From positions 10,299,607-10,363,606 of the forward strand of contig CM119268.1 in assembly GCA_051294375.1 (NCBI GenBank): 64,000 nt of DNA, written 5' to 3'. The translations under genes were made by a program, and so were the position numbers. Positions within the stretch are counted from its first letter, which is position 1. Each line of letters opens with the position of its first letter. The stretch is from Paraspadella gotoi (taxonomy: Eukaryota > Animalia > Chaetognatha). The notes below the pieces were generated by a model. It was not told where the DNA came from. It ran no database searches and saw only the letters and a program-made list of their open reading frames with translations. Positions 20,142 to 51,757 of this stretch are shown here, piece by piece.

Positions 20142-23100
20142 ATGGCTGACTTCTTGGAGAAGGAGGCGGATCTAAGCGAGGGCGAAGGAAGCGACGATGA
20201 CGAAGAGGTTGCCACGACGAGAAAACGCGTCGTCAGTTCAGATTCGGAGGAGGAAGAAGAAGATGACGAGGAAAGAATCAAAGTAATGCCGCTTCAGACT
20301 TGTTCCTTTTTTAAAAAATATTTACGTTTTAAATTTTTTGTAAATTAGTTTACGGGCTTAATTGTCAACCATGTCATAGGCGGAGATGACTGGATTCGTT
20401 GTGGACAACGACGAGGAAGACGACGCCGAAGACAGCAACGAAGATCACGGCGGACGACGAAAAAAACGCGTGAAGCGAAAAAAGGAGGAGAGCGACGAGG
20501 AAGACGACGAACTCGACGAAGATGATTTAGATCTAATAGAAAATAATACCGGAGTTAAGATCAACCGAAAGAAGCAGCTGAAGAGAGTCAAAAAGGTCGG
20601 TTCTCTTTAAGCCACTTCTTTCTATTCGAAGCCCAAGATTCGCTACTATTTAATCCGACTTTGTTAGGTTGTGGACTCGGACGATTCAGGTGACGAGAAG
20701 GGAGAAGAAGATGACCGCGCTGCCGTCGCAAAGGAGATCTTCGAATCTGACGACGAAGACATCGATAAGGACGAGCTTCCGGATCTTCATCGGGAGGCGG
20801 AAGAGGAGGGGCTTCTTCCTGCTTCATCGAGGCGAAGAGACGATGGTCCGGAAGGTTGGTTTGCACATTTTCTCATAGAAATCGTAGCAATTTTACTCAA
20901 TTACAATTACAATATTACTTTTTCAACCGTAGTTCATAGTAGTCGTGATATGAATTTTCATTACATGTAGACGGTGCGTCTGACGAAGAGTCCGACCCTG
21001 ACGATTTTATCGTGGACGAAGACGGTCAACCTGTGACTTCCAAGAAGAAGTTGAAAAAAGTGAAGCACTCTGACGCTGCGCTGCAGGAAGCACAGGACAT
21101 TTTCGGTGTCGACTTCGATTTCCAAGAGTTCGACAAGTATGGCGACGACCGTGACGAGGATTCAGAATCTTATGACGAAGACGAAGACGAGGAGGATGAA
21201 GAGAGTAGACGCAAAGCGCGACGGAGCAAAAAGTCCGCTTCCAGAAAGACCATTTACGAACTTTACGAGCCGAGCGAACTCGAGCGAGGCTTTTTTACCG
21301 ACGCTGACCACGAAATCCGTACGATGGACTCCCCCGAGCGTTTCCTTCTGCGCAAGACCAAGGTGCTGCAACCGGACGAGAGCCGTGATACTGAATTGCA
21401 GGAAGAGGCGGAGTGGATCTACAAAAATGCCTTCCAGACACCGACGGTGTCTAATCAAGAGTTTGCCTCGGCCAACTCTGGCGCCGGCGGTCACGACCAA
21501 TTTGGATACCGCGATAACAATAGATCTTCAAAAGGACCACAGGCCATACCTAGAATTAGAGAGGCGCTCAACTTTATGCGCAACAATCAATTTGAGGTCC
21601 CCTTCATTGCTTTTTACAGGTCAATCCGTTTGATGTTGTAATAAGAAGACCCCACTAACATCCCCATCCCAATATTTTATAAATAATATTTAATTTAGAT
21701 AACTAAAATATGAATATTAAGAAATATCAATTAAAAAAATCTTTAAAAAAGTTCTAAAAAAGAAATTATTTAATAATAATAAATTATTAAGTATTTTAAA
21801 ATGTGAAAACTTAAGATAGTGAAACAAGAATTTTCAAATTTCCAGCAACCTGTTCGACTTTTACTTCAAAACTATTTTACTCCTTGGGTTTTCAGGAAAG
21901 AGTATGTGGAACCCGATTTAAACATCAACGATCTGTGGAAAGTCTACTACTGGGACGAAAAGTGGATGCAGCTGCAGGGTCGCAAGGAGAACCTGGTACG
22001 TCTCTTTGAGAAGATGCAGTCCTTCCAGGCAGATCAGATCCTGGCCGATCCGGACAAGCCACTAGACGATACCCTTCGTGTTCTTGATGACGACGACATC
22101 GCCCGAGTACGACGTGTCGATTCGCCGGAGGAGCTCAACGATGTCTATCAACATTTCTTGCTCTACTACGGGCGTGAAGTGCCGAAGATGCAGGTAAAAT
22201 TTTGGCATTAAATACAAGTACCGCGAGAAAATAAAGATCTTTTGGGAAATGATTATATATTTTTTACACAAGGCGGCGGAGAAAGCAAAAGCCAGAAAAG
22301 AGAGAAAGGAGACGAGGAAAAGAGAGCGGGAGGAGATGAGGCGGCAGAGAAGTGAAGAGGATATCGATAGGGATGAACCTGAAGATGATGACGACGATGA
22401 AGAAGACGCGGCGGAAGAAGACGCCCACGCTCAAAGGCTGGCGTCTCGACGGGATCCCTATTCGCATTGTCAGGTGGAACAATAACATTTCCGCCTTGTT
22501 GAAAAATTATCGCATGGAAAAATGACTTCTTTTTTTTCTCTTTCCCACAGAATTACAATCTTGATACACTAGCTAAACGGTTCGGGCTGACGCCTGAGCA
22601 GTTCGGCGAAAATCTTCGCGATAATTACGCCCGACACGAAGTGGATCAGTACCCGGCCGATCCAATCGAACTTGCTAAGGAGCTGGTTGATGATAAGGGC
22701 AGCTTCAGCACGTGAGTAAACTTTTTTTTTCTCAGAGGTGTTGTTTCAACAGATTGTAAATTAAAATAAAACATCTAATTGCTGTCAATTACCTAATTTT
22801 TAAATATCATATGTACGATCTCATAGGCCGGAGGAAGTATTAACTGGTGCGAGATTTATGGTTGCTTCTCAAATCGCGAGGGAACCGCTGGTTCGCCAGT
22901 GCGTTAGACAGGTGGGTTTACCCTTTCGTATTTTAATTGCAAGATATATCTTGAGCTTAACTAATATTCCGGTTACCCGTTTATACAATTCTATCCAGAC
23001 ATTTTACGAACGCGCCAAAATCTGCATTACACCGACGAAAAAGGGCAAACAGGACATCGATGAGGCGCACCCCTGTTACACTTTTAAGTACCTTAGGAAC

Positions 23101-26100: not shown

Positions 26101-26971
26101 CTGAATTAGGGCTTAAAAGTAAAAAAAAATTATCATCTTCCAGGGTCCCTCTCGGATTCCTTACTACTTCTCGGCATCAAAAGAATTTCCCGGAAAATTT
26201 CTCTTGTCGTACGCGCCTAAGATGAAGCCACGTCATGAGTACCTGACTGTGACGCCAGACGGGCTCCGCTTTCGCGGACAAATCCACCACTCTCTCAACG
26301 CCTGCGTCAATTGGTTCAAAGAACACTTCAAGGATCCTATTCCTGGCGGCGTGGGCGGTGGATCCACGCCAATGAGCTTGTCCGGTAACACTCCACGTCA
26401 AAGCGTGCGCGGCACACCGACTCAGCAACCAAATCAACGCCCACTTGGCGGATTTACCGCTCCTCAAGGCGGAACGCCCTATGGCGCTTTTCCTACCCCC
26501 GGCGCCTATGGAGCTTCGGTCGGACAGCCATTTCCCTCCAATACCCCCAGAGCCCAACAGACGCCCGCGGCGACCACACCAGTTCACCCGCCCCAAGCTA
26601 CACCTAGTTTTCATCGTTCTACTCCTGCCCAAGGAGCCATGCCGCCGCCAGCGTCTTCTGCACGCGTAACTCCGGCCTGGGCGACTCCGGCTCAACAAAA
26701 CGCAGCCGCTCGCGCGACGCCGCGTGGTGGAAATGCAGCCGCCACCGATTGGAGCCGGGCAGCGCAAGAATGGGCGGCGCAACGAAACCGTCGCCAGCCA
26801 GGCGGAAGCGGAAACACTCCGCGTGCTTCAGGTAACACTCCGAGGACAACGCCTGGAGGCGGAGGGACGCCGAGGCAGGACGACCCAAGAAGAACGCCTC
26901 GTTCCCCTTTCACCGGCGCCAGTCCCAGATCAACCGGAGGAGCCACCCCTCTATATGACGAAGTCGGTTAA
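20142..26971 (+). CDS. SUPT6H: Transcription elongation factor / histone chaperone SPT6 (~14 exons)
   Basis: Acidic N-terminus MADFLEKEA; YEPSELERG; [13 protein letters not shown]; HhH region [12 protein letters not shown]; [24 protein letters not shown]; WQCPFC...CPG; S1 domain; SH2 region IIRPSSKG; C-terminal TPLYDE. GT-AG introns join the ORF pieces in frame. Confidence 0.97.
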
Positions 26972-27234
26972 GACATCAAAACTCCTCCAATACCCCGCGG
27001 TCAATTTTTTTTCTTTTCCAGTTTTCCTGTTTTTTTCTTTAAAAACCGATGTAACCATTACCGGTTTTATTGTTTTTTTAAAAGATATTGAGGGCTTTTT
27101 CGAATTGTTTTTCTCACATAATTATTTACTTTCCCTTTAACTTCTTGCCCATGTCCACAATATGTAAAGTATTTCTTGTTTTACTTCTAGTCGTTTTAAA
27201 CGAAACCATGTACAAACGTTACTAAGCATGCGCG

Positions 27235-30200
27235 ATGGCGTTGTCTTCGTTACTCGCGCGGGATTCGACGCGTACGTCGGTAGATCGAGTGGTGGCGCTG
27301 ATTGACATGGATTGTTTTTACGTCGCCGTTGAAAGAAGATTGAATCCCGAGTTGATAGGAAAACCCGTCGCTGTCGTTCAATATCAAGCTTGGAGAGGTA
27401 TGGGGAAAATCAAAATCAAATGGGAGTGAAATGAAGAGAATTGTTATAACACAACTTGACTGACTGCGATAAATATTTGTTCATTTCATTAGTTGGAAAA
27501 ATCTAAAAATATATGTTATTACAGGAAGGACTACCGGGAGTTGGAATATAAAAAACGTCAGTGATTTTTTTACCAGAGTGCAAAAACTGAAGTTGTTATA
27601 ACAAATAATTTAGCCACAGTATTTGATCCTTTCATTTCACTCCCATTTGAAATCCGTGTAAAAACCCTTTTCACGATTTCGGAAAAGGATTTTTAAAAAA
27701 TCAATCCCAATCTTTCTTTTTTCTACAGGCGGAGGAATCATCGCCGTTTCATACGAGGCGAGAGCCTTTGGCGTGACCCGCAGCATGAGAGGCGACGATG
27801 CGAAAGCTGTCTGCCCTGACATCATCCTCTGTCGCGTTGAGGAATCCAGGGGTTGGTCCACTGAAGCTGGACGAACGTTTATTTATAAAATTTCGTAAAT
27901 TTTTTTCTCACCTTTTATTTTTAGGCAAGGCCAATCTGAACAAGTATCGCGAGGCGTCGGCGGACGTCATGGAGGTGATGAAGCGATTCAGCGACAACAT
28001 CGAACGAGCCTCGATCGATGAAGCCTTTGTGGATCTCACAGATGCCGTAGACGAAAGGATAAAGGTCGACCTTGTCTTGTTGTTTTTAGACGACGTGCTA
28101 TGTTAAACTATCTACTAATAAATAAAAGGCCTGTCGTTTCGCCTCTTCTACATCACTTCCAAAAACCTTCGTGGCTTGTTTCGGAGGCGAGGACGTTCCC
28201 AAAGACGCCTCGGTGGAAGATCGCGAAGAAATTCGCTGTCGTAGTGTCGACGTTTGGTTGAACAGTTTTTCAGCTGAGTCAACGCCTCCGCCAATTGATC
28301 TCCGCCTCGCAGTCGGGGCTGCCCTCGTTGAAGAGATGCGCGCCGCAGTCGCGTCCGAGACGTCGTTTGAGTGCTCCGCCGGAATTTCCAGCGGGAAGGC
28401 CTTCGCGAAGTTTGCCTGCGGAATGAACAAACCCAATAGGCAGACAGTCTTGCCTGTTGAAGCAGGTAAGTGGTAGGGTAGCAGCTTTGTGGACGTAACA
28501 ATTGTAACAAGGATATTTTTTAAAAATAGCACTATTATTAATCGTCGATTAATCGTTTTCATTCAGCTCTTGAAACTTTGTTTACTCGTCTGGAACTGAC
28601 TAAGTTGCGGAATCTCGGTGGTAAACTAGGCGAATCTCTCGTCGAGGAACTTGGCTGTCAATACATCACTGATCTTCAGCGGTACACCTGCGGTCAACTG
28701 GTACAAGCCCCTTTCATCTAGTGACTAAATTATGTGTTTATTTGCTACGTTAATACAAGGTCGAAAGGTTCGGCGAACGCCTTGGGATTTGGCTCCACGG
28801 CATCGGTCGAGGCTTCGATAACGAGCCAGTCACGCCGCGTCAGATCCCCAAATCTGTTGGTTGCAGCAAGAATTTTCGAGGACCGCAGGCGCTGAACACG
28901 AAGGATAAAGTTCGACATTGGTTGCTTCTATTGGCCGAGGAGTTGGTTGAGCGACTGGAAAAAGACAGGGAAGCTAATCACCGCATGGCCAAGGGAGGTA
29001 CTGCTTATGTCGCTGGAGCTAACTTCAACGCATCAAGGACCTTCAGCATTTCAGTTTACAATCACGAAAAAATTGCCACCGATGTTTTCAACGTCATCAG
29101 GTTAGAAATTGTGTTATCTTGACTTTGATCTTAACGATTTAGTTTACTATGTTAAAAGTTAAATTATCTTATGCAGCAAACTGAATGACTCGAATTCAGC
29201 TGGAACTCAATGGAAGCCGGAAGTAATTAATCTCGGAATCATCGCCTCTAAGTTTGAAGACTGTCTTGCTTCTAAGGTAAGTTCAATTCGAGTCAATGTC
29301 AAGCAACCATTCTTTAAAATAAATAACATGTAAAGAAAGCTCTTTCCATTTATGTATATTTATTATAGATCGTTTATTCTGTAGGACATAAACTTTAGTT
29401 GCCCGTTTTAATAATTATATTGAAAAAACATTTCCTACTGTTTTGTCCAAATTAATTCAGGGTGGAGCTTGCAGTTCGATCAAGGATTTTTTCTGCAAAG
29501 CAACGGTCACTAAAAAGAGCGACGAAAGTTGTGACGATGGGTCCGTGGACGATAGTGATCAAAATGCGCTGGACGCTTTGGCCAGCATGATTGAAATAGA
29601 TACAGATATGACCACAACCTCAACCATCCCGTCGAATCCAAAGGGCGCCTTGGAATTAGCTTTTGAACGAAGTAGAAACAAGCGGATCAGAGTGGATCAG
29701 AGTGCGGACATTAATTCCTCGCTTGAGCCAATGGTGTTACGAACGATGGGAAATGAGTTAAATGCCAACAATATCGTGGACGAAGCTGCTGGGGATGAGT
29801 CTGGAAACCAAGATGACTCTACTTTTGGTTCTTTCCTTCCCGTTTTTTCCTCTTGGTCCTCACTTACCCCTCAAGAGCAGAAAAAGAAAATCCGTCTTTT
29901 GTCCTCTCGGTCTTCTCTCGATCGAATGTCGTCTCTTAGTTTTTTCCGGCGCCGGTTAACCGACGCCGATGAGCATTCGACGTCGGATTTTCCCTCCTCG
30001 AGTCAAATCGATCCCGACGTCTTGGCCGCCTTGCCGGATGACGTCAAGGAGGAAGTTTTGCGGCAAACGATGCGTCGAGAGACTGACCGACCGAACAAGC
30101 ATCCGATCGCGGATAAAATCGTGGCCAACGAATCGGAAAACCAACGCTTTTTAAATGATATCCCTGCGTCGAAAGAAGCACCGGGGACAGACAGGGTGCG

Positions 30201-30468
30201 TTGTGAAAAGTGCGGCTCCGACGTCAGCGCCTTTGAATTTCCGGAACACGAAGATTTTCACTTCGCAGCTGAACTTCAGAAGAAAATACGTAAGGACGAC
30301 GCGCTAAGACGTCGGGAGACCTCTGGGCCCACCGCTTCGACGTCCGTCTCTCCCGCTAAAAAGTGCGGGGGCCTCAGAACTCGTGGGAGCAGGAGTCGTG
30401 GGAGAGGAACTAAATCTAGCTGTGATAACAACAATCAGGGACTGAATATAAAAAATTTTTTTGGCTGA
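27235..30468 (+). CDS. POLH: Y-family DNA polymerase eta (~8 exons)
   Basis: RVVALIDMDCFY, GIIAVSYEARAFGVTR, ERASIDEAFVDLT, CSAGIS, NKPNRQT, LGGKLG, PKSVGCSKNF, C-terminal UBZ (CEKC...EHEDFHFA) and a PIP-like NIKNFF. Confidence 0.95.
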
Positions 30469-30669
30469 TCAATTTACGTACGTTCTTCGTTACTGTTTTA
30501 CGTATGTTGCATATTATTTTCAGAAAGTGGGCCTTCTACGCGAATGAGGTGGATCTAAGATTCTGGTGCTTTTGTTTCAAGAACCTCCCACCAAAAGCGC
30601 CTTTTCGAAAACTTTCGGTCATCCGCAGTTATTTTTTAGTCACTCGCTTCTGTTAATTTTACCGCCAAG

Positions 30670-33600
30670 ATGGCGGAGCATGGGCGTCCACGTCCCTCGG
30701 ACGCTGGTTCTAGTAACGTCGCTACCGACGAGGACTTTGATGGAACATCACCCCCAGACATTGTTGATGGAGACGTCATCTCGGACAACGCCTCTCGACC
30801 CTCCGGAAGTCAAAACGTGACGGAATCGATGAGTCGCGGCGCGGAGACGTCAGCCGGTGGACCGGGGCCCGTCAATCTCGGCATGGCGGAAGAAGATGAC
30901 GAGGAAGATGAAGAAGACTTGGACGACTACCGGTAAAATGAGAGAATTGGATTTACTACATGACGAATCTTTCACTTTGTGATTCTGCACTGTGAAAATG
31001 CGGTTTACTTTTCTATTTGTACTCAGAGAGGATATGGTCGACATCATGGGAGACAGTCACGACGAGTCCGAACACATGTCCTCTGACGAAGACGTAGGCG
31101 GTAGCGACGTCGATGCTGGCGACGATGAACCCGAAGACGAGAACGACGATCCTGAAGAAACGGGGGAATTTAACCGACCTAAGGAAGGGGAGGCCCTTAT
31201 TGGTAACTTTTTTTTTAATGCTTTTTTCTCAATTTGACAAATTTCAGAAAAGTCGCAGAATATAATAAAATAATACGATAATGTTTAGATTGATGGAAAT
31301 TGGAAGGGAATTTTAAAAACGTTCAAAAAGCTTTGTTGTTTTGTCTATAAGTATAACCCCTTTTTATCTCGCCAGACGGGCAAATGCCCGACTTGGGCGA
31401 GATGTTAAATCGTTTCTGCTTTTTTTGACCATAGTAGTCGTTGTCACGCTGTTTTAATATTGAAAATAGCTCAAGTGTGTAACCATAAAAAGCTAAAAAT
31501 TTAGATATAGCTTTTAATCAGCAAGATCTTTTTGATTCACATGTTTCATATTTTTCAACTCATTTTTTTGTTTTATTTACGAAACAATTTATATATATAT
31601 ATAAACGAGTTTAGCTGTCCAGCTCTCTCTCTTTTTAAATACATGTATATGTAGCTCTCTCTTTTAATTATATGTCGTACTCTTTTTATCGTCGCAATCG
31701 CGTTGCGTTTGCGACAATCTCGTAACGCTTTTGGGCATAAGTGGCGTCGGCGTCGTCATCGTCATCGCTGGCGTTCCAAATTATAGATCGCCTTTTTTAT
31801 GATTAAATTTGGGTGTATAAGCTGAAAATTATATACAACTTCTCATCATCGATGTGCTTAAAATTGAGTCTGGACAGTTATTAAATGTTTTGTTTACGTT
31901 TTATCAATACAAACAAATTTTTTTCTTTTTATTTTCTATTTCTTCTCTCTCTTTTCTCTTTTAATTACATGTCTCTCTCCCTCTCTCTTTTCCCTAGTCA
32001 CTGATTCATAATCTAGTGAAAAAAAACGAGTCTGCAGCTGGCTCTGCAGGGGCTTATTCTTTTTCTCTCTTTTTTCTTGGCTGCTTCTGCCTTTTGAGAC
32101 TGCAGCTGGCTCTCAGGGGCTCTTTCTTTTTCTTTCTTTTCTCCTGCTGCTTCTGCTGCTGCCTTTTAATTTCTTTCTTTTTTTCTGGGTGCCTCTGCTG
32201 CTGAAAATGATTTGGCTTCTTTCTCTCTCTCTCTCTCTCTCTCTGATTAATTTTTTCCCTCTAAAAACTTTTATTATCGCCATTTATTCCCAAATTTATA
32301 TCCGAGATTTTGTGGATTTTTTTCGTAGATTTTTTTTTCTCAAATTTGATTTTTTTAGTATCAAAATTTGTCGTCAATCCAGATTTTTCTTATGCAATTG
32401 CGACATACTATTGATTTAAGATTTTCCATCATTGCTTCTTCTGATTCGTTATCTAGCTTTTTTTTTCTCTCTTTTTCTCTCTCACTCATACACGCATTTG
32501 TTTGTTTTATTTACGATGAATGATTATCATCACATCAATGAAAGACTATTATTGCATCCATCATTTTGTTATTATCATATTAATATTTGGTTATCATCGC
32601 ATCAATATTTGGTTATCATCGCAACAATCAATCAATATTACATCAATCAATCAATTATTATGATATTAATAATTCGTTTTTGTATCAATCATTTATTTTT
32701 TTTTATTATTTTTTTCATTAATTTTTTTTTATAGTAACGTCTGGCGAGATCACTCTACTTTTAAGATTTTTTTTCTTTAAGGCTGCAAGCATTATCGCCG
32801 AAGGTGCGCCCTCATCTGCCCCACTTGTTCCAAAGCCTACACCTGCCGGTTTTGCCACGACGAAGAGGAAGCTTCGCACGAGTTGGACCGAAAGTCCGTT
32901 GTTCAAATCAAATGCCTAGAGTGCGATCGGGTGCAGAAGGTATATTACAGTATATAAGTGAAGCAGTACGGAGTATTGTTAGTATTGTTGCGAGCGAACG
33001 TTCCACCATTAACAGACTTCCTCTTATTCAGGTTGAAAACTCTTGCTGCTCCTGCGGCGTCACCTTCGCCCTCTACTTTTGCGCCATCTGTCGACTTTAC
33101 GACGATGACGACAAAAACCAGTACCATTGCGACGGGTGTCAGATTTGCCGCGTCGGCGGCCGCGCCAACTTCTTCCACTGCTCCACCTGTGACATGTGCT
33201 TGGCCAACGAAATGCAGGACAACCACAAGTGCGTCGAAAAGATGTCCCGCTCCAATTGTCCCGTCTGCCTAGAAGACCTGCACACCAGCCGCAAAGCCTG
33301 CCGCGTGCCAAAATGCGGCCATATGCTTCATTTTAAGTGCATGCAACGCCTCCTCAAAACTGGCAACTACGCCTGCCCCTCTTGTAGCGTCTCAATGGTT
33401 GACATGACCTCGGTTTGGGAACGACTCGACTACGAGGTGGAAGCGACTCCGATGCCTGCGGAATACCGCGATTTCAAAGTCCAGATCCTTTGCCGCGACT
33501 GCCACCAAGAATCTCGCGCCCCCTTTCACATACTCGGTCAAAAGTGCTCCCATTGCGGCTCCTACAACACTTGCCGTGCCGCGGAGCCAGGCGGCTGCTG

Positions 33601-33973
33601 TGCAGAGGATATCAATGGCGATGCCGATAGCGAATCGTCTCTGGCGGCGACGGCGCAGGCGAACGCCGAAGACGCCGCTGCTGCCGCCGTTAGAGAATTG
33701 GGTCTCGCCGGAAGCGTCCGTGAGGACGGCGAGGAGCAAGAAGAGGCAGAGAACTTTCATCGCATGCGAGGACTCATACAAAGACTGACCGGTGGCGGAC
33801 GAGGCGGGAGCGGAAGCGACCGATCGAATCACCGACGAGACAATGACGAGGCAGGTTCCTCTTCTTCCGACGGTGGCGGCGCAAGCGGGGCGAGCGGTTC
33901 CAGTGGCTCACGCGACGGACCGAGCGGCGCCGCCAGAGCCCCATTGTATAGAGATGACGATGATTTCGACTGA
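30670..33973 (+). CDS. RCHY1: RING finger and CHY zinc finger E3 ligase (Pirh2) with acidic N- and Gly/Ser-rich C-terminal extensions; exons ~30670-30932, 31028-31202, 32782-32939, 33032-33973
   Basis: GCKHYRRRC...CRFCHDE CHY finger, CTCHY (YFCAICRLYDD..YHCDGCQICRVG), RING-H2 (CPVCLEDLH...CGHMLHFKC...CPSC) and zinc ribbon (CRDC...KCSHCGSYNT). Confidence 0.93.
31361..32762 (+). mobile_element. HINE-like element family A in RCHY1 intron 2
   Basis: T-run + subTIR ATCTCGCCAGAC (31366-31377) with an adjacent inverted TTGGGCGAGAT, and a 3' subTIR GTCTGGCGAGAT (32739-32750) + cactctactttt. The same ends occur at 37241/38012 and 53061. Confidence 0.8.
31683..32415 (+). mobile_element. HINE-like element family B nested in family A
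   Basis: T-run + ATCGTCGCAATCG...TTGCGACAAT 5' hairpin and a 3' tatgcaattgcgacat end. Homologous to 52661-54140. Confidence 0.7.
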
Positions 33974-38422: not shown

Positions 38423-40338
38423 ATGTCACTTATGAGTAAAAAGCCGCTGAAGCCTTTCGGAGAGATCGATTCTTCTTTGAAGGAATTAGCACCCACGTAC
38501 AGGTAAGGTATTTTTTTATGACTGAAAAAGTAGATTATTTTGTGTGAACAATCAACGCAGAAACCATGACGGATTTTTGATGCCCATGGGGATGAGCGAA
38601 GACAATATGAAGTCAGCGTTAAATTACCAAGCTGAAGAAGATGACGTCTTCATTGCGACTTATCCGAAATGTGGGACAACTTGGATGCAGGTAACGGCTA
38701 TTTTTTTTAAATGTACTTAGAAACTAAAGTTATTCATGTATTTCAATTTTTGGTTTCTTATTTCATGGCGTTTCAGGAAATTAATTGTGGTAAGTCTAAT
38801 CCTTTTTTTTTCGTGGTTTCTGTGATTTTATTTTTACTTTTTGTATTGCTGCACATTTTGTATTTCTGAGTTCCTGAATTATTACAATTTTTGCCAAATT
38901 CTTTTCTTTTTTTTGCGTTTGACTTTTTGAAAAAATGGTTTCAAAGGGCAAAACCGGATAAAAACGTTTTTTCTCCGCAAACATTGAATAATTATTATAA
39001 AATTGATTTTATTATGAATTTTTACGAAATTTGCTATAATCGCTATAATCGACTCTCTAAAATACAGTCATAGTTTATACACAACCGTTAAGATCAGGGG
39101 TCGACGCGCGAATCTTCTTCTTCATCCTGTTATCGTGTCCTCTTCCTTCACAGAGCGACGGTTTCTCTCATTCTAGATTTCACTTCTCCTTTTCTCTGTA
39201 ATTTTTGATATTTTTCTGGACTCTCTCAATACACGCTTTCACCATTATTTCTCGAGTTCTTCTTCAAACAGAGTCTTATTTCAGTCACATTATTTTATCT
39301 CTTATTTCTGCAATATCATCTCCCCTTTTCTGATTTTTCATCAGTACGTCCTCTATCTGTTGAAAAACAAAGGCGAGCCTCTTCCCGCGCGCGGGAACAT
39401 CTCGATTGAGGCGCCTCATTTGGAGGAAATGGGTGGCGAGTTTATCGCGAGCTGCTCTCAACCGCGAATCATTAAGACTCACCTGCCTTTCGACTTGGTG
39501 CCTTGGAACGATAAGGCCAAGTGAGTCACTTTTTCTGTTTTTTTTTTTTTTTTTTTTTTTGGTCCGAAATGTTTTGACTTCGACTTTCAATTAAAATGAA
39601 GATACGTGTGCGTGGCCCGCAATCCTAAAGACTGCGTCACGTCGTTCTATTATCACACAAAGAACTTCGTCAACCATTACTCATTCAAGGGAGACTTCTC
39701 GGTTTACTTCGAGTGTTTCCTCGCGGGATACGTCGACTTTAACTCGTGAATATCGACCAATAATTCACTCTATGGTCACTTCCACAGGAAAATTATTTAT
39801 TTTAAATTGAAATTTATAGTTACTTCGATCATCTTAACTCGTGGTACGAAGAGCGGAATAAAGCCAATGTCCTGTTCCTCACCTACGAGGAGATGAAAGA
39901 GGATCTCGCTCAATGCGTCAAACGACTGGGCGAGTTTTTGGGCGGCGAGTGGGAATCCAATTCAAAGGATGAGGCTGTTGTTAAAGCAATTCTGAAGGTA
40001 CCGAATGACTCAGCCCGCTCCGAGTTTTTTTTTTCCTCAAATCGGCTACGATAAAAAGTATAAGGAATATCGGCTTTGTTTTACTTACCCAGCTCGGTAC
40101 ATGGTAAGTCGGTTTTTTTTCTCGAATCCAGCATTCCGATATCTCTTCGATGAAGTCGGATCCTTCTAAATGGGTTTTCACAGCAAACGACCAATTTATA
40201 CGAAAAGGGATCGTCGGCGACTGGAGAAATCAGCTGACTCCCACCCAGTCGCGCCGACTCGACGAAAAGTTTCGTCAAGAATGCGGGAATACAAGCGCTA
40301 TCCGACTCTGGGAAAAGTATGGTATTCCGGAGATGTGA
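38423..40338 (+). CDS. Cytosolic PAPS-dependent sulfotransferase (SULT1/SSU-like), 6 exons
   Basis: 5'PSB motif DVFIATYPKCGTTWMQ, IKTHLPF, 3'PB motif VARNPKDCVTSFYYH, FLTYEEMKEDL and C-terminal FIRKGIVGDW. Confidence 0.92.
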
Positions 40339-40504: not shown

Positions 40505-41716
40505 ATGGAGCGATTGGGACATGATGGCGATGCGGCAGTATCACGGTTTGATACTGCTTGGTTTTCCCGTCGACTCAGCGCCGACGTCGTGTCTGTTGAT
40601 TGGGGCGATACTGTAGTCGCTGGTTTCGTCAGCGGTATCAAAAGGGTTCGGGTTATCACGCGAAGCGGTGAGACCATGGCCCTTGTCCTAAAAATTCTTC
40701 ACGAGGGCAGTTCGGTTGACCGCCAAACCGTAGTGTCGCTCGGCGTTGCTCGCGAAGCCGACTTTTATAACTTCCTGGTGGTTTTGCCGCCGGACCAGCG
40801 TGCCGCCTTTGATGCGGTTCTTCCACGCGTCTATTTCGCCGAAAGCGACTGGAAGACTGGGATGAAGACCATCATCCTGGAAGATTTGAGCGACGATAGC
40901 AACGGAAGGGGATTGAATTCCGGATACTTTTTTGGTCCTGGAAACCCAATCAACTGGAACAAGGATTTGGTGGCATTGACGGAATCATGTCCCGATGTCG
41001 ATGCTGAAATGGTTGCACTTGTCAGCTTTTTGTCCCTCGCCAAAATCCACGCCTGCTTTTGGCTTCAAGACGACTTGCTGGAAATTCCTTGGCTTCACTG
41101 GACCGGTTGGATAAAGGGAGAAAATCAGGAAGGATGGGAACTGGCGATGGACCGTTCACGTGAGGCCTTTCAAAGGATGAAATCCGCTTTAGAGGCGGGT
41201 ACTTACCCGCACGATATTCCGTCGGAACTTTTTCGTTGCGCGGTTAAATCTTTTGGTAAATTGACTTGGAAAGATTTTCGAGAAGAAATAAAAACGACTC
41301 AGTGGACTTTTGTTCACGGTGATTTTCATCCGGGAAATATAATGTGGATGAAAGATAGTGGACAAGTAAAGTTTCTCGATTGGGAAATGGTAGGGGTTTC
41401 CAGCGGCCCACAGGAACTGGGTCAGTATGTGATATCTCATATGGATATCAACAAGTACGGCAAGCAAACCCATGAACGTTTGGTGAGGGCTTATTATGAA
41501 GAACTGATTAGAGTCAGTCCAAACTTAAAAGCAAAGTTTCCCTTCGAACTCTGCTGGCAAGAGTTCGTTTATGGGGGCTTCAGAAAGTGGTTGTGGATGA
41601 TGCCCAACATGGGCGAGTGGTTCCCGGCTGCGATTCCTTTTTTTGTTAGTCAAATTGAAGGGTTTCGTCGAATTCACGAGATTGATGAAGAAAAAGTTGG
41701 GTTTCCGAGGTTGTAA
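40505..41716 (+). CDS. Intronless protein-kinase-like small-molecule phosphotransferase (APH/choline kinase/EcKinase fold), 403 aa
   Basis: LVLKI, READFY, IILEDL, Brenner motif HGDFHPGN and metal-binding DWE, all in a single uninterrupted ORF. Confidence 0.85.
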   Translation: MERLGHDGDAAVSRFDTAWFSRRLSADVVSVDWGDTVVAGFVSGIKRVRVITRSGETMALVLKILHEGSSVDRQTVVSLGVAREADFYNFLVVLPPDQRAAFDAVLPRVYFAESDWKTGMKTIILEDLSDDSNGRGLNSGYFFGPGNPINWNKDLVALTESCPDVDAEMVALVSFLSLAKIHACFWLQDDLLEIPWLHWTGWIKGENQEGWELAMDRSREAFQRMKSALEAGTYPHDIPSELFRCAVKSFGKLTWKDFREEIKTTQWTFVHGDFHPGNIMWMKDSGQVKFLDWEMVGVSSGPQELGQYVISHMDINKYGKQTHERLVRAYYEELIRVSPNLKAKFPFELCWQEFVYGGFRKWLWMMPNMGEWFPAAIPFFVSQIEGFRRIHEIDEEKVGFPRL

Positions 41717-41876: not shown

Positions 41877-44800
41877 ATGCATCGTAAACGCAAGTCCTAT
41901 CCACGTGGAGACCACGACCAATATGCGGCGAAATTGGCGGAGGAGAGCCGCATCCTTGCGGATGTTACTATTGATCACGAAACCGCAAAGCAGGAAGCGG
42001 CGCGTCTCTTCGAAAAAGTCTTTGACTACGGATCCGACCCAGAGTGGACCCTAGCTCAGAATGTCGTGAGTTTTGGTGAAATACATACCCTGCTCAGGGA
42101 AAAAGTTTCTTTAAATGAGTTATTTTCACGTAGGAATTTCTCCGTCGAAGAGAAGATGAACGGGAATCGCGCACGGCGATAAAACTTCGTTTGATGTCGG
42201 CGAAGGAAAAGTTGATCGCCACTAAAACGGAGCTCAACGACTCGGCCATCGAGGAGTGGCGTCGCTTCACTAACTCCACTCATCGCGGTGGCCGAGTTAT
42301 TAATGACGTCCGCCGCAGGTGCTGCGCTGAGCTTCCGACGCAGGTTAGCGACAGGGGGCCCTATTTATTGCAGCTCGCCTTTTAAAAAATAAAGGCTATT
42401 GATTTCAATTTCATTCACTATTTTCCCCCCCGAAGGCGTGGTGCAAATTTCGAGAGATTCTGGTCCTCATCGGTGACTCAATTCCCGTAGATTGGACGTC
42501 GTCGTCTTCTTCTTTTTTTTCAGTCCCTCACGATATTAACTCGATTTCGACCGATCTTCGAAACTCTTCGTCATCGTTCAACGATTTCCCGTACGCTTCG
42601 ATCCAATTCCCAGACTCCTCTCCCGACCGCCCCCCTTCTGAAAGCTCTTCCACGTTTCTGACCGGACCTGCATCGAATAACGCTCAGCTCGAAACTTTTC
42701 ACCTCTGCGAGGCGCCGGGCGCCTTTATCGCCAGTCTTAATCACTACCTGCTCAACAGAGATTATCGCGGTGACTGGCATTGGACCGCCAACACCATGAA
42801 CCCATACCACGAAGGTAAATTGAAAGTCTTGGAAGGAAAAATCTTCTGTTTTTTCTCAATCCTTATTAAATTATACAGCGGAATATTTGGATAAGATGAT
42901 TAATGACGACCGACTTATTTACAACACTCTGTCAAGATGGGAATTCGGTCCGTCTAATGTTGGCGATATTATGGACCCACTGACTCTTAAGGCGCTTATA
43001 AGGCGAGTCAATCGAGCATCCACCGACGACGATCCAGACGGCTTGCATCCACCCACTCCGGTAAAACTATTTGGCATTTTATTATTCTAAACAGAAACGC
43101 AACGAAACTGAAAGGATTAATTATAACTTAAATGAATTTTCCAGTTTGGCACTGACGGTGACCTTTCCTTTGGCGTCCATCTCGTAACAGCGGACGGGAG
43201 TGTAAGCTGTGCCAATGACCCCGCCGAACAAGAGAGTACTGTTGCGTCTCTTCACTGGTGCGAAGCGGTCGCTGCCTTTAGTATCCTTAAAAAAGGTAAG
43301 TCGTTAACATTTGAACTTTGTTAAAAGAAATTAAGTTGACCTTTCCCCAGGTGGTTCGCTTGTCCTAAAGATGTTTACGCTTTTCGAAGACTCTTCAATT
43401 TGCCTTTTGTATCTCCTCAACTCTCTTTTCAAGCGAGTCCGCGTCGTTAAACCGGCAACGTCCAAGGCGGGAAATTCCGAATGTTACGTCTTAGCGGAGG
43501 TTTTCATCATCAGACCTCATAGATTTTCCCAGTATCTGCCTCTTATTTTTTTTTACGCATTTTTGATTATTTCGCCAAGGTTTTCAACGATCGACTTTGG
43601 TTGAGCCTGTTAGCCAATTTCCTTCGCCCCCACTACGGCTTGAACCTGGCATCTCAAGCAGTTTCTTTAATTCTAAATTTGGTGCCCGAGTCTTTTATGA
43701 AGAGACATTTTGAATGCGTCGAGACTTTCAAGGTTATCGCAATTGCATTAAAGATACCGATATAATGATCACCCCAAATTGACCTTTCGCTCCCTCCTTC
43801 AGAATTGGCAAACGAGTCACATCGAAGAGAACATCGAGCTTCATGCGAAGTCATTCCGCTCTCCGTCCGAATTCGAAGCCGAAATGAATCGAGTTCGCCG
43901 TGTGCAGATCGAAGTCTCGCGTCTTTTCTTCGCTCGTGCTAGGCTCAAGGTGAATTAACTTAACTTAACTTGCCTAATCATCGCTTGGCTCTTTAAAATC
44001 ATAAGCTTCGTAGATTCGTAGATTTATTTGTATAAATGAGACTTATTGTACTAGGATTATTCTCCCTCTTTTCTAATTTAAATATTTAATACTATGATGT
44101 TCCATAATTATTTAACAGTATAGATACGTAGATGAACTTTTAATAATTTGCGTATTTTGTAGGCCATTTCCCGAGATCACCACCTTGCGCCCACAAGGGT
44201 CGTGTCGCCAGCCCACTCCATCTCTCCGCACAACTCACTCGAAGGAAGTTATAACCAGAGACGCGAAGAGGCTCTGTTACCCTGGACCCAAAGAATCAAA
44301 ACTGTTATTCCTAAGGTTAAATTAATTTCCGCTAACCTTTTTGTTTTCATTCGCCAAGAGGTTTATTTTTCTGTTTCCTCCTATTCCCCTTATAGGACTA
44401 CACGAAAGTTGCTATCCCTTTCTCCGCTTCGTGGGTACGAAACTATGAACAAACGCCATCCCCCGCGCTTCTATGTCACTTTCGCAAGAACTGCTTCATT
44501 TATGGGAGTCGCTGTGATACTGTGAACAATTCGTTATTCATCGATCCGCAGTCCACGAGAGATTGGCACCTCGCAGTTGACTCTTCAAGTTTTCAATCCC
44601 GTCATATCTATGGCGTTGACTCCATGGTAAATGCTCAGAACGAGAATTTCTCTAATTTAATCTCCTGAGGTCAATCGCTATTTCAAAGAGAAGTAGCGAG
44701 GGTTTTCTCGCTCATTTAATTTAATAAGTACACCAAACACACAAAATAGTTGCTGGCCAGTGGCGATTAAAAGTTCAATCTAATCCCGCGTTTTTTGTTT

Positions 44801-46016
44801 TTTTTGTTGTTGTTTTTGTTTTGTTTTGTTTTTTTGTTTAGACCGTCAGCAACATCAATGACAAGTTCGTGGACGAGTATTCTAAGTACTTCACGAAGTC
44901 TACAAATCTATTTGAGTACATTCTACCCGAACTTTCTGAACTCGCAGATTGGCAAGTAGTGGAGCGACACCGCTCTTTTCTAAATAAGGTATTTATTTTT
45001 TAATTTCTTGAATATTGATGGAGATGATTTTAAAATCACGAGTAATTTTTTCGTTCCCCCACTCCCTTCAGGGTGGTCAGGTCATCTACTACTTTTCTTG
45101 CGTCGACTTCGCCGCCGTATCTGCCGCAGGCGGACTTTCTCTTGAAGAATCAACTTCGCCGCCTCTCATGCTTTCGCTTTTAAGGCGCTTGTTCGGCGTC
45201 GACGGCGCCTGCCCGCCTATTCGTGGCTCGCACTTGTTGCTGCATCTACCCCCGATCATGTCGCGATTCTCTGCTTGTTTCGTAAATTTCGTCGCTTCTT
45301 ACTTTGACGTGTGGTCATTGGGCACTGCCGACAATCTCGTAGACTTTACTCATCGGTGCGAATTCGAAGAAGACTTAGAACGGTGCGGGAGCTCCCTGAG
45401 CTATGCTTCCCAGCTCCCGTCCTTCTTTTTCTTTGGGGCCTCGTTTCGTTTAGATCGGGGTTCTGACAAAGACGACGTTGCTTTAAAAGCCGCGAAAGAA
45501 TTCGTGACTGCTTTAGAGAAGAATGTTACTAGTGGAATTGTTCAGACAGAAGATCTTGAAAGTAATGAGATTGATTCTAACTCGGTTAAGTACAAACCAC
45601 CTGATCTCGGCGTTGTAATGCAAGACTTGGTGCGATCCGCTAAGAGGTCGGAGTCGTTTAATGAACCAAGAAATGAAGAAACGGAGGCGATTTCGGACAT
45701 GGTGGTTGGCGGCGTTACCAATAATACACCTGTAAAAAATACTTCGTTTTCTCGTGCTGAGTCTTTGTCAGTTGCAACAACGTCAATGTTGACTTCGATA
45801 ACTCCCGAAGTTTCCAACTCTGCCGACGAAAGATTTCATCTTCTCCAGTTCTTGCCTTTAGATAAGTTGAGCTCGCCGAGCTTTCTGTGCCACCTTCGTT
45901 CAACCAACGCAGCACTGATGCAGAAGCGGCTCAACTTTCTCATCGAGTTGGAGAGGACTGTAGACGAAGCCTCAAAAGGCCTTTCAGAGAAAAAACCATT
46001 GGTCCTACCTGAATAA
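41877..46016 (+). CDS. CMTR2: Cap2 mRNA 2'-O-methyltransferase (CMTR2/FTSJD1), ~12 exons
   Basis: [68 protein letters not shown] (K-D-K-E tetrad). The C-terminal half is divergent. Confidence 0.9.
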
Positions 46017-46229
46017 CTCCAAAGCAAGTTTTTTCTCTTCTCTTTATTGATCTGTGATATTTTGTCAAATAATGTTCACCGAAGAATAATGCAATTTGTT
46101 GTTTCGCTTTTCGCATCGCCGGAAAATCTGTTCAGTTACAAAGTTTTATTATTTAACTTTGACGAATATCTTTTTTATTTTAGGTTAAGATTTATATTAT
46201 ATATACATATATTTATTTACTGAGTTACA

Positions 46230-47089
46230 ATGCGGCCGTTGGTCAGCCGTCTCGCAGGATGTCCAGCATCCATGGCTTTCGCAGCCGCCTCGGTTCCAGT
46301 AGCTGGCGGTGTGTTTTGGGTGTCTACGCGCGGCTTCTTCCGCTCGGCGAAGGCGGCATCCGGCTCCGGCCTTCCTCGCGTTTTCTTTGACGTTAAAGCG
46401 GACAACGAGGACATCGGCCGAATTGTCATCGAACTGAGGTCCGACGTTGTACCAAAGACTGCCGAAAATTTCCGGCAGCTGTGCACTGGTAAGAAAGATT
46501 TACGATACGATTTATCGTACTTCTTCCAAAACTTTACAACTCGTTTTTCAGGCGAAGCGGGATTCGGCTATAAAAACGCTCCTTTTCACCGCATCATTCC
46601 GGGATTCATGTGCCAAGGTGGAGACATGACCCGTGGGGATGGAACAGGGGGTAAGAGCATTTACGGCAACAAGTTCAAGGACGAAAACTTTAAGCTCAAA
46701 CACACGGGACCTGGAATCCTCTCCATGGCCAACGCGGGTAAATCCAGTGGGCGGATTGTTTGCTTTCTTCATTTGGTCGAGCTAAAACATTTTCTTTCTC
46801 CGCAGGACCGAATACGAACGGAAGCCAATTTTTCATATGCACTGCCGTGACATCGTGGCTGGATGGCGCCCACGTCGTTTTCGGTAGCGTCGTTGAAGGC
46901 ATGGAGGTTGGTCTCCTTGACTGTTGCCCGTGGCGCAATGTTGAAAAGAGCATATCGATAATGTCATTATATGGACAGGTCGTAACAAAAATGGAAGCCC
47001 TCGGCAGCCGCAGTGGGCGGACGAGCCGAAAAGTTTGGATCAGCGACAGCGGGGAACTTGCTACCGAAAAGAGAGCTGTCGAGGAATGA
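46230..47089 (+). CDS. PPIF: Mitochondrial cyclophilin (cyclophilin D-like PPIase), 4 exons
   Basis: Arg/Ser/Ala-rich presequence, [66 protein letters not shown]. Confidence 0.85.
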
Positions 47090-47314
47090 AAAAGACAGAG
47101 CCGAGAATTTCGTGTCTAAGTTGGAAGAGCGAATTTTGTGCGGAAACTAGTTGTCGAGTCATCGGTTAATTTACTTGACTGATTGGCTCTCGTTTGTTAT
47201 AATGAATGTTTTTGTTTGAAAAAGAATGAAAATACTTTAGCGCTCGACCAGAGTCGAGTGTTAAGCGTGATGATCGCGTCAAGATGATCAAGAGAGAGCC
47301 GTCGCTTTTAAGTC

Positions 47315-48937
47315 ATGAGGAGAGGTCTTCGTCATTTTGCCGGCGTCCTCGCCGCAGAAACACATTCTCCGGACTGCGTAGCATTGGCGGCCGCGTTGAC
47401 ATGTGACGTCGCGTCTCGTCGGAGATTCGCTTCATACAGCGACGATCATTATGTAACTCTGGGCGTGCCCGAAGACGCTACGCCGCAGGAGATCAAGAAA
47501 GGTAGGGTAGGTGCCTTTGGTTCGTTACAGAAACATTAGTAATAGAATTTTCGTGCTTTATTCTAGCATTCTACACCCTTTCTAAACGCTGCCATCCCGA
47601 TCTTCACTCCGAAGATAAAGCGATGGAGGAAAAATTCAAGAACCTCTCTATCGCCTACGAGGTTTTGAACAACCCTCAAAAGCGGCGGGCGTACGACGTT
47701 GATTTACGTGGGAGTCGACCGGCTAGGAGATGGAACCAAAAGATCCAGCACCCCGCCGGTTAATGAAAAAATATTAAATTGAGATATGGCTAGAAAAAGT
47801 CGATAAATCTTTAACAAGTACACAAGTAATTAAGTCAAATACTAACTCCTATTTTGCGACTCATATTCATAACTATTTGGATGAAATTATTACTCAGCGA
47901 TGAACCGTCAACTTCAGTACTCCTTCACCGGTGCGGATTACGCTGCATGGCGCGAGAGACGTCGACGAGCGGCGATGAACGAAGACGACCAATATAATGA
48001 CTGGACCGACGAATGGATCAAATATCAGCGGAGAAAAATGTGGGAGAGGATGGACCTGGACCAGGACGAGCACTACCGAGGTCGCGCCACGATGAGGGAC
48101 CAATGGAGGTAAGAACCAGGTCGGTGGTTGTGGCAGTCGAGTTGTCTTGACTTTACGATTAAACTGGCGCTGATTCTTTCAGATGGAATGAAGATCCCGA
48201 AGACTTCTTTAAAGGACGGATGGATGAAAAATATACTGAGAGGTTTCGAGAAAAGGAGAAAGATTGGGTAGGTTCAAGTCATGGCCGTATTAACTATTGC
48301 ACCGATCTCACGTTAAATCACTTGACGCAATTAGATCGCGCTTTATCCGGTCGCCGTCATCGTCTTCATCGTGATCTACGTATATTTGGAATATCGTTTC
48401 CGGGACTCGCCGGACCTGTCGGTCGTGGCTCCACCAGTCGTGAAAGTGGTTTCGCATAAAACAAACTCGGAAACGGAGCGGGAGAGAAGGGAAGCGCGGG
48501 AGAGAAGGAAGGAAGAGGAGCGGATCGAGGCGGAAATTAGGGACGCAATTCGAAAAAGACGCAAAAAGATACGAAAAAAGGAGCGCGTTGCAGAGAAGAG
48601 TAAGGAGACGGATTTGAAAGACCCCGCGGCGACTGTCATCGCCACGTCTGGGGTTGCGGACAGAGAGTCGAGCGATTGCCACGACGCGCCTCTGGAGGCC
48701 GAAACCCCGACGGACTATTCGATCGTTGAGCCGGCGATTTCGAATGTTGCGCCGACTGATTTGAGCGTTGAGCGTACGGATTCGAACGTCCGGCCTGAGG
48801 ATACGACCTATACGTACGATGAAGAAAAAGATTCTCCTCTCGAAAAATCTTTTCGTGATAACGTTGTTTTTATTGACGGACAATTGGAAATGAGTGGATT
48901 ATTTTTTAGACGCTCGACGTCGTCAAGACCTGCATAA
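47315..48937 (+). CDS. J-domain (DnaJ class C) protein with a probable mitochondrial presequence and one TM helix (DNAJC4/DNAJC30-like), 5 exons
   Basis: DHYVTLGVPEDATPQEIKKAFYTLSKRCHPDLH...AYEVLNNPQKRRAYD; hydrophobic IALYPVAVIVFIVIYVYL; charged coiled-coil tail. Confidence 0.82.
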
Positions 48938-49203
48938 TTGGGGCTATACTTTCATTATTTATTTTCGCTATACATACAATTGTTTTTAGTTTCCATAAAA
49001 GTTGAAGACAATAATAAATTAAAGAGTAAAAATAAGAGAACTTGAATGGATTATTTGAAGAGAATTATTATGAACAATAACTATTAACTATGATTCCATT
49101 CGTCGCATTTTTTGAATTATTTCCATTGACAATTTTGCTATTTAAATAAATCTACCAAAATTTTAGTTCTAGTGTTAAAACGAGACTTTAAAGAAAGGAA
49201 AGA

Positions 49204-50300
49204 ATGAGCACTTTGCGCCTGCAGAAACGGCTTTCGGCCGCTGTGCTGAAATGTGGCAGGAACAAAGTATGGATGGACCCCAACGAGATCAACGAGATCG
49301 CTAATGCTAATTCAAGACAGGTTATTCTTGTTAAATTTTATTATCGGTCTTTATACTAGGCCGAACTCGTTTGTACTAAAATCTTTAATTTTTTTTTCTG
49401 CAGAACATTCGTCGACTGATCAAGAATGGTCTGATCATTCAAAAGCCGCAGGCCGTCCATTCGCGCGCTCGTACAAGGAAGAATGCGCTGGCCCGCAGGT
49501 ATGCTGTATGTTTTTCGTAAAATATATTCCTTCGGTGTAAAAGAGATAGCCAGTGACAGAATATCGAGAGTTTCTTATTTTAAATCTCAGGAAAGGTCGT
49601 CATTCCGGACCTGGAAAGAGAAAAGGAACGGCCAACGCTCGAATGCCCGTCAAGGAGCTTTGGATGAGGAGGATGAGAGTCCTGAGGCGGCTACTGAAAA
49701 AGTACAGGGAGAACAAGAAGATTGACAGGCATCTGTATCACGAGTTGTACGTCAAGTGCAAGGTTCGATTTTTCCCAGATATCGATACGACAACATTACG
49801 ATGAATAGATGATTCATAAATTTTATTAGCGAGTGTACTTTTCAGTTTTGGGAGAATAATTTATTCTTATCTCGCCAATTAAATTGAAACAATAATTACA
49901 TTTATTGGGGAGACTTTTTAAACTTTTTAACACAACCTTTCATCGTATTTTTTTTTTCAGGGTAACGTTTTTAAAAACAAGCGTGTGTTGATGGAGTTTA
50001 TCCATAAGCGAAAGGCGGAAACCCTTCGTTCCAAGCAGTTGGCCGACCAGGCTGAGGCCAGGAGAAACAAGACGCGTGAAGCTAGAAAGCGCCGGTAAAT
50101 GTTTGAGGTTTTTACATCAAAACGTATTTTGTCGATAATTTGGCATTTCGAATCCCGAATCTCCCTTTGTGAGTCTTTTGATAATTAATGTCGATTTTAT
50201 CATTGCTTTTCGTTGATTCCGCAGAGAGGAACGATTGGCGGCGAAGAAGGCCGAGTCGCAGAAGATCTACGCGAAGGAGGATGAAGCTTCAAAAAAATAA
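49204..50300 (+). CDS. RPL19: 60S ribosomal protein L19 (eL19), 5 exons
   Basis: [68 protein letters not shown]. Confidence 0.97.
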
Positions 50301-51757
50301 ACGTTTATTGCGTTAGCAATTTTGTACCTGGGATCATCGTTTATATTGATTAAAATATATTTTGGATTAAAAGATTTTCAGTTGTTCACTATAACATTTT
50401 AAAAACCTAAAGCTTCCAATTTGTGGTATTTTCTTTGTTTCCAGGTCACTCTCCCCTTGATCCTTCCCCCCTCCCCCCCTTTCGCGAACCCCCGTTATCT
50501 TATTTCATTTTTTTTGTTGCGGATAAAAAAAACTAGTGTAACTGGAAATACAAATATCAAAAAACAACTATAAAAATCGACACAAATATGACACCTTCGT
50601 CGCTCATTGCTCGACGGAAATGCAGAAATGAGCGACACGCCCCGACTTCGTCGTTCGCACCGTTGAAACTTCGCCCACCCTTCGTGACGACGCTGTACCC
50701 CTGATCTCTTCCCATGACAACCCCCTCACTCTTCGAGGTCATCGCCGATTTGCGGGTCTTTCTTTTTGCGATCCTCACTTCCCTCATCCACCCTCAAACC
50801 CCGCGATTGCTTTGAATTCGAACTCCGGTTGAAAGGCGATTTTAAACAATCGCTCTGCCAGAATCTCGTCTATAATTGAGGTTACATTAAATTAGCTATT
50901 AGTTCCTTTAAAAAAATAAATTGATTAAAAAAGAACCCGCCACTCTTCGAACGAAAACCATCCCATCCGGCCCATTTGTTCGCGTAGATCAGAACACATT
51001 CGCATTAAAACTTAAAAAGATAAAAAGATAAAAATATAAATTTGGTCGCTATATACAGTAATATAGTAATATAGTTTTAAAAAAAATTCCTGCGCACTTG
51101 CTCTTACTGGGGAATAAATGAGATTCGAAATAGTCGTTGCCCGTCGAATCCACGGTCTTCGTCCTCGCCGAACCTCCTGTTGATTTCCTCGACCGTGAAC
51201 GAAAATTAATCCGATTATCGAGCGACGGAAAAGGTTTTTTTTTTCTCTAGTCGGAGAGCTAATGCTGCCGCCGATTAACGACCAAAAATCCCGTATTTAA
51301 TTTGATTGAATTTTTGATGGAAACTTAAAAAGAAGCGCAATCGGCGGCGGATGGTTGTCGAATCTCGCCCTTCGAGCGTAGAATCGTGAACTCCCTTGGA
51401 TATTCGTCCTCTTTGCTTTTCCCCCCGGTCGTCGACGACGTCGTTTACGTCGAAGCTCCCGCCGATGTGGGCCGACGAACGCGTTGACGAAGACGACGAT
51501 CAGGACGACGAGGATTCGATGACGGCGGCGAGCGTTGTCCGCGACGGAGGATTGTCCGGTCCTTCCTAGTCGCGACGTGATCGAGTAAGAAAAAAAATCA
51601 ACCAAAAGAGTCGCCGCCGTCACTGCCGTCAAACCCGCCCACCAGAAGACGAACCGATTACGTAAATTTTCTTTCGAGCGTGAACAGAAAAAAAAAAAAA
51701 AAAAATTGCCGTGGATTTTAAAAAATCCAAAAGTATAAAATCTTGATATTTCATAAA

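Follow-up and report, generated by a model that had tools for sequence, protein, structure and literature searches.

The published account of Paraspadella gotoi, the arrow worm from which the sequence analysed here comes, describes nearly half of the genes as trans-spliced and 18% as belonging to operons, which were recognised as runs of co-oriented genes with gaps of <250 bp. The longest of these operons holds nine genes and includes ribosomal, ubiquitin and proteasome genes, and no operon-specific downstream leader is reported there (PMC12460157). In the RPS14–PCNA operon of Spadella cephaloptera the poly(A) site and the acceptor are described as being 3 bases apart (PMC2481426), and a median of 1 bp is given for operons of the Ciona type (PMC7986045). 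In Oikopleura dioica the polycistrons resolved by a leader are reported to reach 11 genes (PMC4122922, PMC3024270), and the maxima given for other animals are nine genes for Macrostomum and eight for C. elegans (PMC8629364), nine for parasitic flatworms (PMC12582326) and seven for Ciona (PMC7986045).

The locus we describe lies in a window of 64,000 nucleotides (the whole stretch of DNA analysed; positions are those of the window) and comprises 11 co-oriented genes running from SPT6 to RPL19 on the + strand between 20142 and 50300, according to gene models built from the sequence. We lean towards the reading in which these eleven genes, and probably a twelfth, form one operon that is transcribed as one unit and resolved by leader trans-splicing. 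The locus resembles the P. gotoi operons in its co-oriented housekeeping genes <250 bp apart, with ribosomal, ubiquitin-pathway and proteasome genes amongst them (PMC12460157), and would share with the Oikopleura polycistrons both resolution by a leader and a size of up to 11 genes, though in a different phylum. Unrelated genes separated by U-rich intercistronic spacers of ~100 bp are also a feature of the C. elegans SL2 and flatworm operons as described, but both kinds are shorter, and the SL2 operons have a dedicated leader of a kind not reported in P. gotoi. Because arrow-worm operons have already been published the mechanism is not new, and the locus is an unusually long case of a known chaetognath operon type, with 11–12 genes against a published chaetognath maximum of nine (PMC12460157). 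The earlier note, made from the sequence alone, had called it exceptionally long; it stands at the published ceiling (11 genes in Oikopleura, nine in chaetognaths, Macrostomum and parasitic flatworms) but not far beyond it. The published nine-gene operon may be this locus or a part of it, and the gene order of the locus is not described in the titles and abstract openings listed for the chaetognath operon and genome literature since 2009.

All 11 gene models (four of which were amended using RNA joints and start-codon checks) have open reading frames and together contain 58 introns with a median length of 83 nt, compared with a peak of 47 nt described for Oikopleura, bearing out the earlier claim of eleven co-oriented genes on the + strand. 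The names first given to them are all consistent with the Pfam domains found, in order SPT6 domains, IMS/UBZ, CHY/RING, methyltransferase, proteasome, sulfotransferase, EcKL/APH, FtsJ, cyclophilin, DnaJ and L19e, and the ten stop-to-ATG gaps were reproduced exactly (263, 201, 499, 209, 255, 166, 160, 213, 225 and 266 bp from SPT6 to RPL19). Gaps of <250 bp are found throughout when RNA-supported ends are used, which gives a run of 11–12 genes, whereas four of the ten gaps exceed 250 bp by stop-to-ATG distance alone. Minus-strand ORFs of at least 80 codons within the span overlie + strand coding DNA (two of them over gene 12), the single exception lying inside a repeat-rich intron. The DNA flanking the cluster is repeat-rich and loosely packed, and the nearest recognised upstream coding sequence (14.5–15.1 kb) is on the minus strand; the probability of eleven genes sharing one orientation is ~1e-3 under random orientation. 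No Rfam families or tRNAs were found in a search of the 64-kb window. The coding DNA is not depleted in CpG (observed/expected 1.14–1.57), which is consistent with the unmethylated gene bodies described for P. gotoi (PMC12460157).

Table 1. Features of the locus, with positions in the 64,000-nucleotide window.
Feature	Position	Strand	Evidence
Candidate promoter-proximal 5' end, SPT6 5' UTR	19900..20041	+	Pyrimidine-rich stretch, donor 19942, acceptor 20041
SPT6, 14 exons, 1778 aa	20142..26971	+	Gene model, Pfam, RNA contigs
POLH (DNA polymerase eta), candidate acceptor 27190	27235..30468	+	Pfam; SPT6/POLH spacer bridged by RNA contig
RCHY1 acceptor in use	30523..30524	+	RNA contig start 30524, 55 nt past POLH stop
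RCHY1 (CHY/RING ubiquitin ligase)	30670..33973	+	Gene model, Pfam, RNA contig
AS3MT-like methyltransferase, first intron GC-AG, candidate acceptor 34408	34473..35993	+	Pfam, RNA
PSMB4-like proteasome beta subunit, candidate acceptor 36140	36203..38167	+	Gene model, Pfam, RNA
Cytosolic sulfotransferase (SULT), candidate acceptor 38320	38423..40338	+	Gene model, Pfam, RNA
Intronless EcKL/APH kinase-like gene, candidate acceptor 40458	40505..41716	+	Pfam, homologues, RNA
CMTR2-like FtsJ methyltransferase, candidate acceptor 41833	41877..46016	+	Gene model, Pfam, RNA
Tandem acceptors upstream of PPIF	46183..46189	+	Contig with 34 non-genomic letters joined at 46189
PPIF-like cyclophilin, N-terminal extension	46230..47089	+	Pfam, RNA
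DnaJ protein, candidate acceptor 47240 (two upstream ATGs remain)	47315..48937	+	Pfam, RNA
RPL19 acceptor in use	49166..49167	+	RNA contig start 49167; bin arithmetic, first piece 151.01 nt
RPL19	49204..50300	+	Gene model, Pfam; relatives' orthologues with chaetognath leaders
Probable twelfth gene	50444..55461	+	Acceptor 50444; CDS 51758-52597 + 54940-55461

The twelfth gene, which had been raised as a possibility, is now probable: it lies behind an AG 144 nt from the RPL19 stop and is covered by RNA from 50559 to 52597 and again from 54940. Its predicted product of 453 aa has one hydrophobic segment and a death-domain-like stretch, with no match to a Pfam family, and the coding sequence is preceded by a leader of 1.3 kb with 10 upstream ATGs and followed by a gap of ~2.3 kb.

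RNA evidence for the locus came from the assembled contigs of one public run of one study (X1), in which 0.67 of the words of 40401–50400 are found; two further runs (X2 and X3) gave only repeat-like scraps over the window. X1 represents spliced RNA, as modelled introns appear in it as joints (at least 26 of the 58 among the matches listed), and the sample differs from the window by scattered substitutions. In most of the bins tested the listed contigs account for the depth of cover to the decimal, which fixes the contig ends; bin 26805–27468 has extra cover beyond these contigs. It should be noted that stretches without contig cover were taken as no evidence, and that contig depth was not used for ranking genes.

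Amongst the listed X1 contigs, intron-free and joint-free examples run through six of the ten spacers (SPT6/POLH, AS3MT/PSMB4, PSMB4/SULT, SULT/kinase, kinase/CMTR2 and PPIF/DNAJ), and one contig spans SULT–kinase–CMTR2. The remaining spacers are unbridged, with 62 nt uncovered in POLH/RCHY1, 113 nt in RCHY1/AS3MT, 42 nt in CMTR2/PPIF and 177 nt in DNAJ/RPL19, compared with the 3 bases described for Spadella (PMC2481426), although the contig ends here are not poly(A) sites. Spacer-spanning RNA, which the earlier note called for, is seen at six spacers, as contigs and not as molecules. A contig through a spacer is not proof of a single RNA molecule: few reads suffice for bridging and intronic contigs occur in X1 at a depth of 2–9, which makes nascent RNA, DNA and overlapping UTRs possible sources of a bridge as well.

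The four unbridged spacers also favour an alternative which we regard as a substantial possibility, in which the same trans-splicing acts on smaller units, these being either two or more abutting operons or a hybrid operon with internal promoters of the sort known from C. elegans. A break would be likeliest in the spacer of 499 bp between RCHY1 and AS3MT and ahead of RPL19 or of gene 12, and both the RCHY1/AS3MT and DNAJ/RPL19 spacers carry A(A/T)TAAA signals; most operons described in the literature, moreover, consist of two or three genes (PMC8629364, PMC4122922). Set against this, a gap between contigs is no proof of a break, and the uncovered gaps leave so little room that an internal promoter with its outron would extend into the 3' end of the upstream gene.

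Contigs start exactly one base past two of the acceptors named beforehand, at 30524 behind AG 30523 and at 49167 behind AG 49166, in agreement with the earlier expectation of RNA 5' ends at these positions; the non-genomic leader expected with them was not seen, as neither contig carries leader letters, and no published chaetognath leader was seen on transcripts of the locus amongst the X1 contigs. Two of the five measurable contig starts are directly behind a pre-named AG (chance ~2e-4) and three of the five are behind any AG (chance ~8e-4), with those at 34431 and 50559 falling off the named AGs 34408 and 50444, and the PPIF RNA junction is at AG 46188–46189, 6 nt past the named 46183. The SPT6 contig start (~20051, placed by hand) was left out of this count because it depends on indels which are not displayed. 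In a contig graph the leader-joined and genomic paths part at the acceptor, and a contig whose side branches have been pruned then starts at AG+1; as all published chaetognath leaders end in A and the genomic path in G, the two would part at exactly this base, and we infer that 30524 and 49167 are leader junctions. A short cis-spliced first exon would yield an equal contig start and may be the cause instead, but the donors available upstream of 30523 and 49166 are weak, scoring 3.7 and 3.0, which places them at the 9th percentile of true donors.

The 58 cis acceptors of the locus were used to train a weight matrix for scoring the AGs of the spacers, and donors were ranked against the true donors. 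All 12 of the named AGs are at the positions given for them, 37–146 nt 5' of the ATG (30 nt in the case of 30639), but as a class they do not stand out: the mean best AG score of the ten spacers is 5.79 vs 5.65 in dinucleotide shuffles (185/500 reach 5.79), there is no difference from 84 intergenic control windows (p 0.20), and the named AG has the top matrix score in only 5/11 spacers. The earlier list of AGs is right in its positions, and RNA shows two and possibly three acceptors in use, but the YAG-motif argument is weak by itself. Similarly, in none of the 11 spacers does the best donor rank above the 17th percentile of true donors, in keeping with the earlier remark that no strong donor was evident, but shuffled spacers lack typical donors to the same extent (202/500 are at or below the observed value). 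TTTYAG, an acceptor motif known from nematodes, occurs in 7/10 spacers vs 3.7 in shuffles (p 0.025, as one of five patterns tried), once on the reverse strand and at 8/58 cis intron ends, and a search for a common spacer motif gave nothing past T-rich words and TTTYAG. Branch-point-like YTRAY was found in 4/11 spacers and in 27/58 introns. AATAAA is present in 1/10 spacers. Three spacers have A(A/T)TAAA, a predicted poly(A) signal, 78–153 nt 5' of the named AG, an additional one lies 21 nt upstream of 49166, and most spacers have none.

Evidence for leaders at one of these genes comes from close relatives. A query with one RPL19 exon recovered marine metatranscriptome proteins, 33 of which form a clade to which the window RPL19 is sister (SH-like support 98), and 32 of these are ~90–94% identical to it over the whole protein. 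Nine clade members have translated 5' extensions, and four of the nine share 5–8 residues with translations of three published chaetognath leaders (PMC2481426, Table 3): LSSFNLFK opens P0267 directly past the in-frame stop of the leader, NSFICLIK is present in P0265 and P0397, and YFTCL in P0268. None of the 49 extensions from outside the clade reaches five shared residues, and 2000 shuffled leader sets never gave more than 5. The RPL19 messages of close relatives are on this sequence evidence trans-spliced ~50–60 nt 5' of the ATG, and the AG used in the window is 37 nt 5' of the ATG; it should be noted that this leader evidence stems from relatives and from the one gene. The three leaders have no match in the 64-kb window, and of 80 RPL19 loci found for relatives none exceeds 87% identity, so no relative's DNA was recovered with a leader; one locus (L022) resembles the mite proteins. 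The window SPT6 is 59–65% identical to its best 120 matches, of which the named ones are all bilaterian, and in a tree it groups with none of the arthropods, lophotrochozoans and deuterostomes sampled. Sequence comparison, mainly of RPL19, thus makes a chaetognath the most likely host, one of the four groups named in the earlier note, and an acoel origin was rejected in view of the RPL19 clade and its leader-like extensions.

The relatives' leaders, together with the RNA starts at AG+1, support the earlier reading of a leader-resolved operon, and they bear on a second alternative that we consider improbable, in which tightly packed genes are separately promoted and have ordinary starts or short cis-spliced first exons, the AGs being mostly due to chance. 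The acceptor scores that equal those of shuffles and the missing leader letters at 30524 and 49167 fit this alternative, and a compact annelid genome without operons provides a precedent (PMC7854359). It accounts poorly for eleven genes on one strand between loose, repeat-rich flanks, for spacers without a typical donor, and for an RNA that starts only 55 nt past the POLH stop, and the trans-splicing of ribosomal-protein messages does occur in chaetognaths.

Under the single-operon reading, the polymerase would start near 19.9 kb, just upstream of SPT6, and read on into a long RNA of 30–35 kb, which would be cleaved and polyadenylated behind each gene, mostly without AATAAA, with a spliced leader being joined to the unpaired AG before each downstream gene. 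The first gene would differ from the others, as it is only upstream of SPT6 that a typical donor pairs with an acceptor: donor 19942 scores 8.1, which is within the range of true donors, unlike that of every internal spacer, and with AG 20041 it fits an ordinary cis-spliced first exon with a predicted 100-nt intron in the 5' UTR, though this joint is absent among the RNA joints listed for X1. On this reading the SPT6 message would be cis-spliced from a normal promoter and no spacer would have a promoter of its own; a single pre-mRNA of 30–35 kb, started from one promoter near 19.9 kb, is plausible.

One X1 contig does carry a non-genomic 5' end, with 34 letters (35 with a shared G) joined to PPIF at AG 46188–46189. 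This loose end is GC-rich and has a leader-like length, but is unlike the tabled chaetognath leaders, which are 33–36 nt long and all end in A (PMC2481426); its 30 displayed letters have no match in the window or in metagenome contigs, and their folding does not surpass that of shuffles (z -0.85). The loose end may represent either a chimera or a rare leader, and we note that P. gotoi is described as having three leaders, not all of them in common with Spadella (PMC12460157).

The intronless kinase-like gene stands apart from its neighbours SULT and CMTR2, to both of which it is joined in RNA. Amongst the eleven genes it ranks last in both GC3 (0.50) and codon fit, and 92 homologues were found with up to 39% identity; those named to organism (from 10 of 92 clusters opened, most matches having no name) are from a diatom, cryptophytes, a brown alga, a diplonemid, a choanoflagellate and fungi, with no animal amongst them. 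Homologue names, the absence of introns and codon use suggest that the gene was acquired by transfer, though it may instead have been lost in other animals. The same features would fit an assembly artefact or contaminant, but this is largely refuted and very unlikely, as RNA contigs join six neighbour pairs in the order of the window, including SULT–kinase–CMTR2. The Hydra RFC140-flp operon is described as a leader-resolved operon with a gene of probable unicellular origin (PMC3273482), and we propose a comparable history for the kinase-like gene within the present locus; the Hydra operon differs in having two genes and in having been demonstrated experimentally, the transfer proposed here being drawn from sequence comparison. 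We think it rather doubtful, and suggest only tentatively, that the locus is a 35-kb transcription unit of 12 unrelated genes, a larger number than in the animal operons of the literature consulted (11 in Oikopleura, nine in chaetognaths), that the kinase-like gene amongst them was acquired without introns or promoter from an alga or protist, and that the unit may use an undescribed GC-rich 35-nt leader.

The locus would be more notable if it were one 12-gene unit distinct from the catalogued nine-gene operon. Two testable side questions concern the near-absence of AATAAA between the genes and the possible acquisition of the kinase-like gene by transfer. If one polymerase reads 11–12 genes over 30–35 kb and through at least 10 3'-end signals, the locus would provide an upper bound for animal operons and a ready system for studying the uncoupling of cleavage from termination in a lineage for which no leader dedicated to downstream genes is reported.

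All homologues of the kinase-like gene that carry organism names come from algae, protists and fungi, and the gene is a candidate for horizontal transfer into the probable operon. Splicing of the GC-AG type intron of AS3MT (34693–34806) is borne out by an RNA joint, and the PPIF contig begins with 34 GC-rich non-genomic letters joined at 46189, which may represent either a rare leader or a chimera. Many contigs of X1, a public run of spliced RNA, match the dispersed repeat common to the introns of RCHY1, PSMB4 and gene 12. CpG is not depleted in any of the 11 coding regions (observed/expected 1.14–1.57), as would be expected in the absence of gene-body methylation.

Further features of the window, including the kinase-like gene and gene 12
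Feature	Position	Strand	Remarks
Tandem array	4922–5950		151 bp unit, 6.7 copies
Cysteine-rich exons	14520–15060	-	weak DAN-domain match (E 4e-4)
Dispersed repeat	31360–32750, 37250–38020, 53050–53950		shared by RCHY1, PSMB4 and gene 12 (long introns)
EcKL/APH kinase-like gene	40505–41716	+	no introns
Gene 12	50445–55461	+	no Pfam family assigned
Ankyrin + death domain gene, then HlyIII (adiponectin-receptor-like) gene	57767–64000	+

The coding sequence of gene 12 is preceded by a 1.3-kb leader with ten upstream ATGs, and its protein has one hydrophobic segment and a death-domain-like stretch similar to the death domain of the neighbouring ankyrin gene (pairwise E 2e-4). The AATAAA at 62016 and AG at 62183 suggest that this neighbour and the HlyIII gene form a second operon. 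Upstream, the cysteine-rich exons, which we take to resemble glycoprotein hormone alpha-2, are oriented divergently to SPT6. We also note a stretch richer in GC at 18600–18900, which on visual inspection resembles a tRNA or a SINE but in which ARAGORN and Rfam gave no match.

The N-termini of eight RPL19 entries in public protein catalogues (P0265–P0269, P0394, P0395 and P0397) read as translated spliced leaders. Such N-termini offer a usable route to detecting trans-splicing, and also allow unnamed plankton proteins to be assigned.
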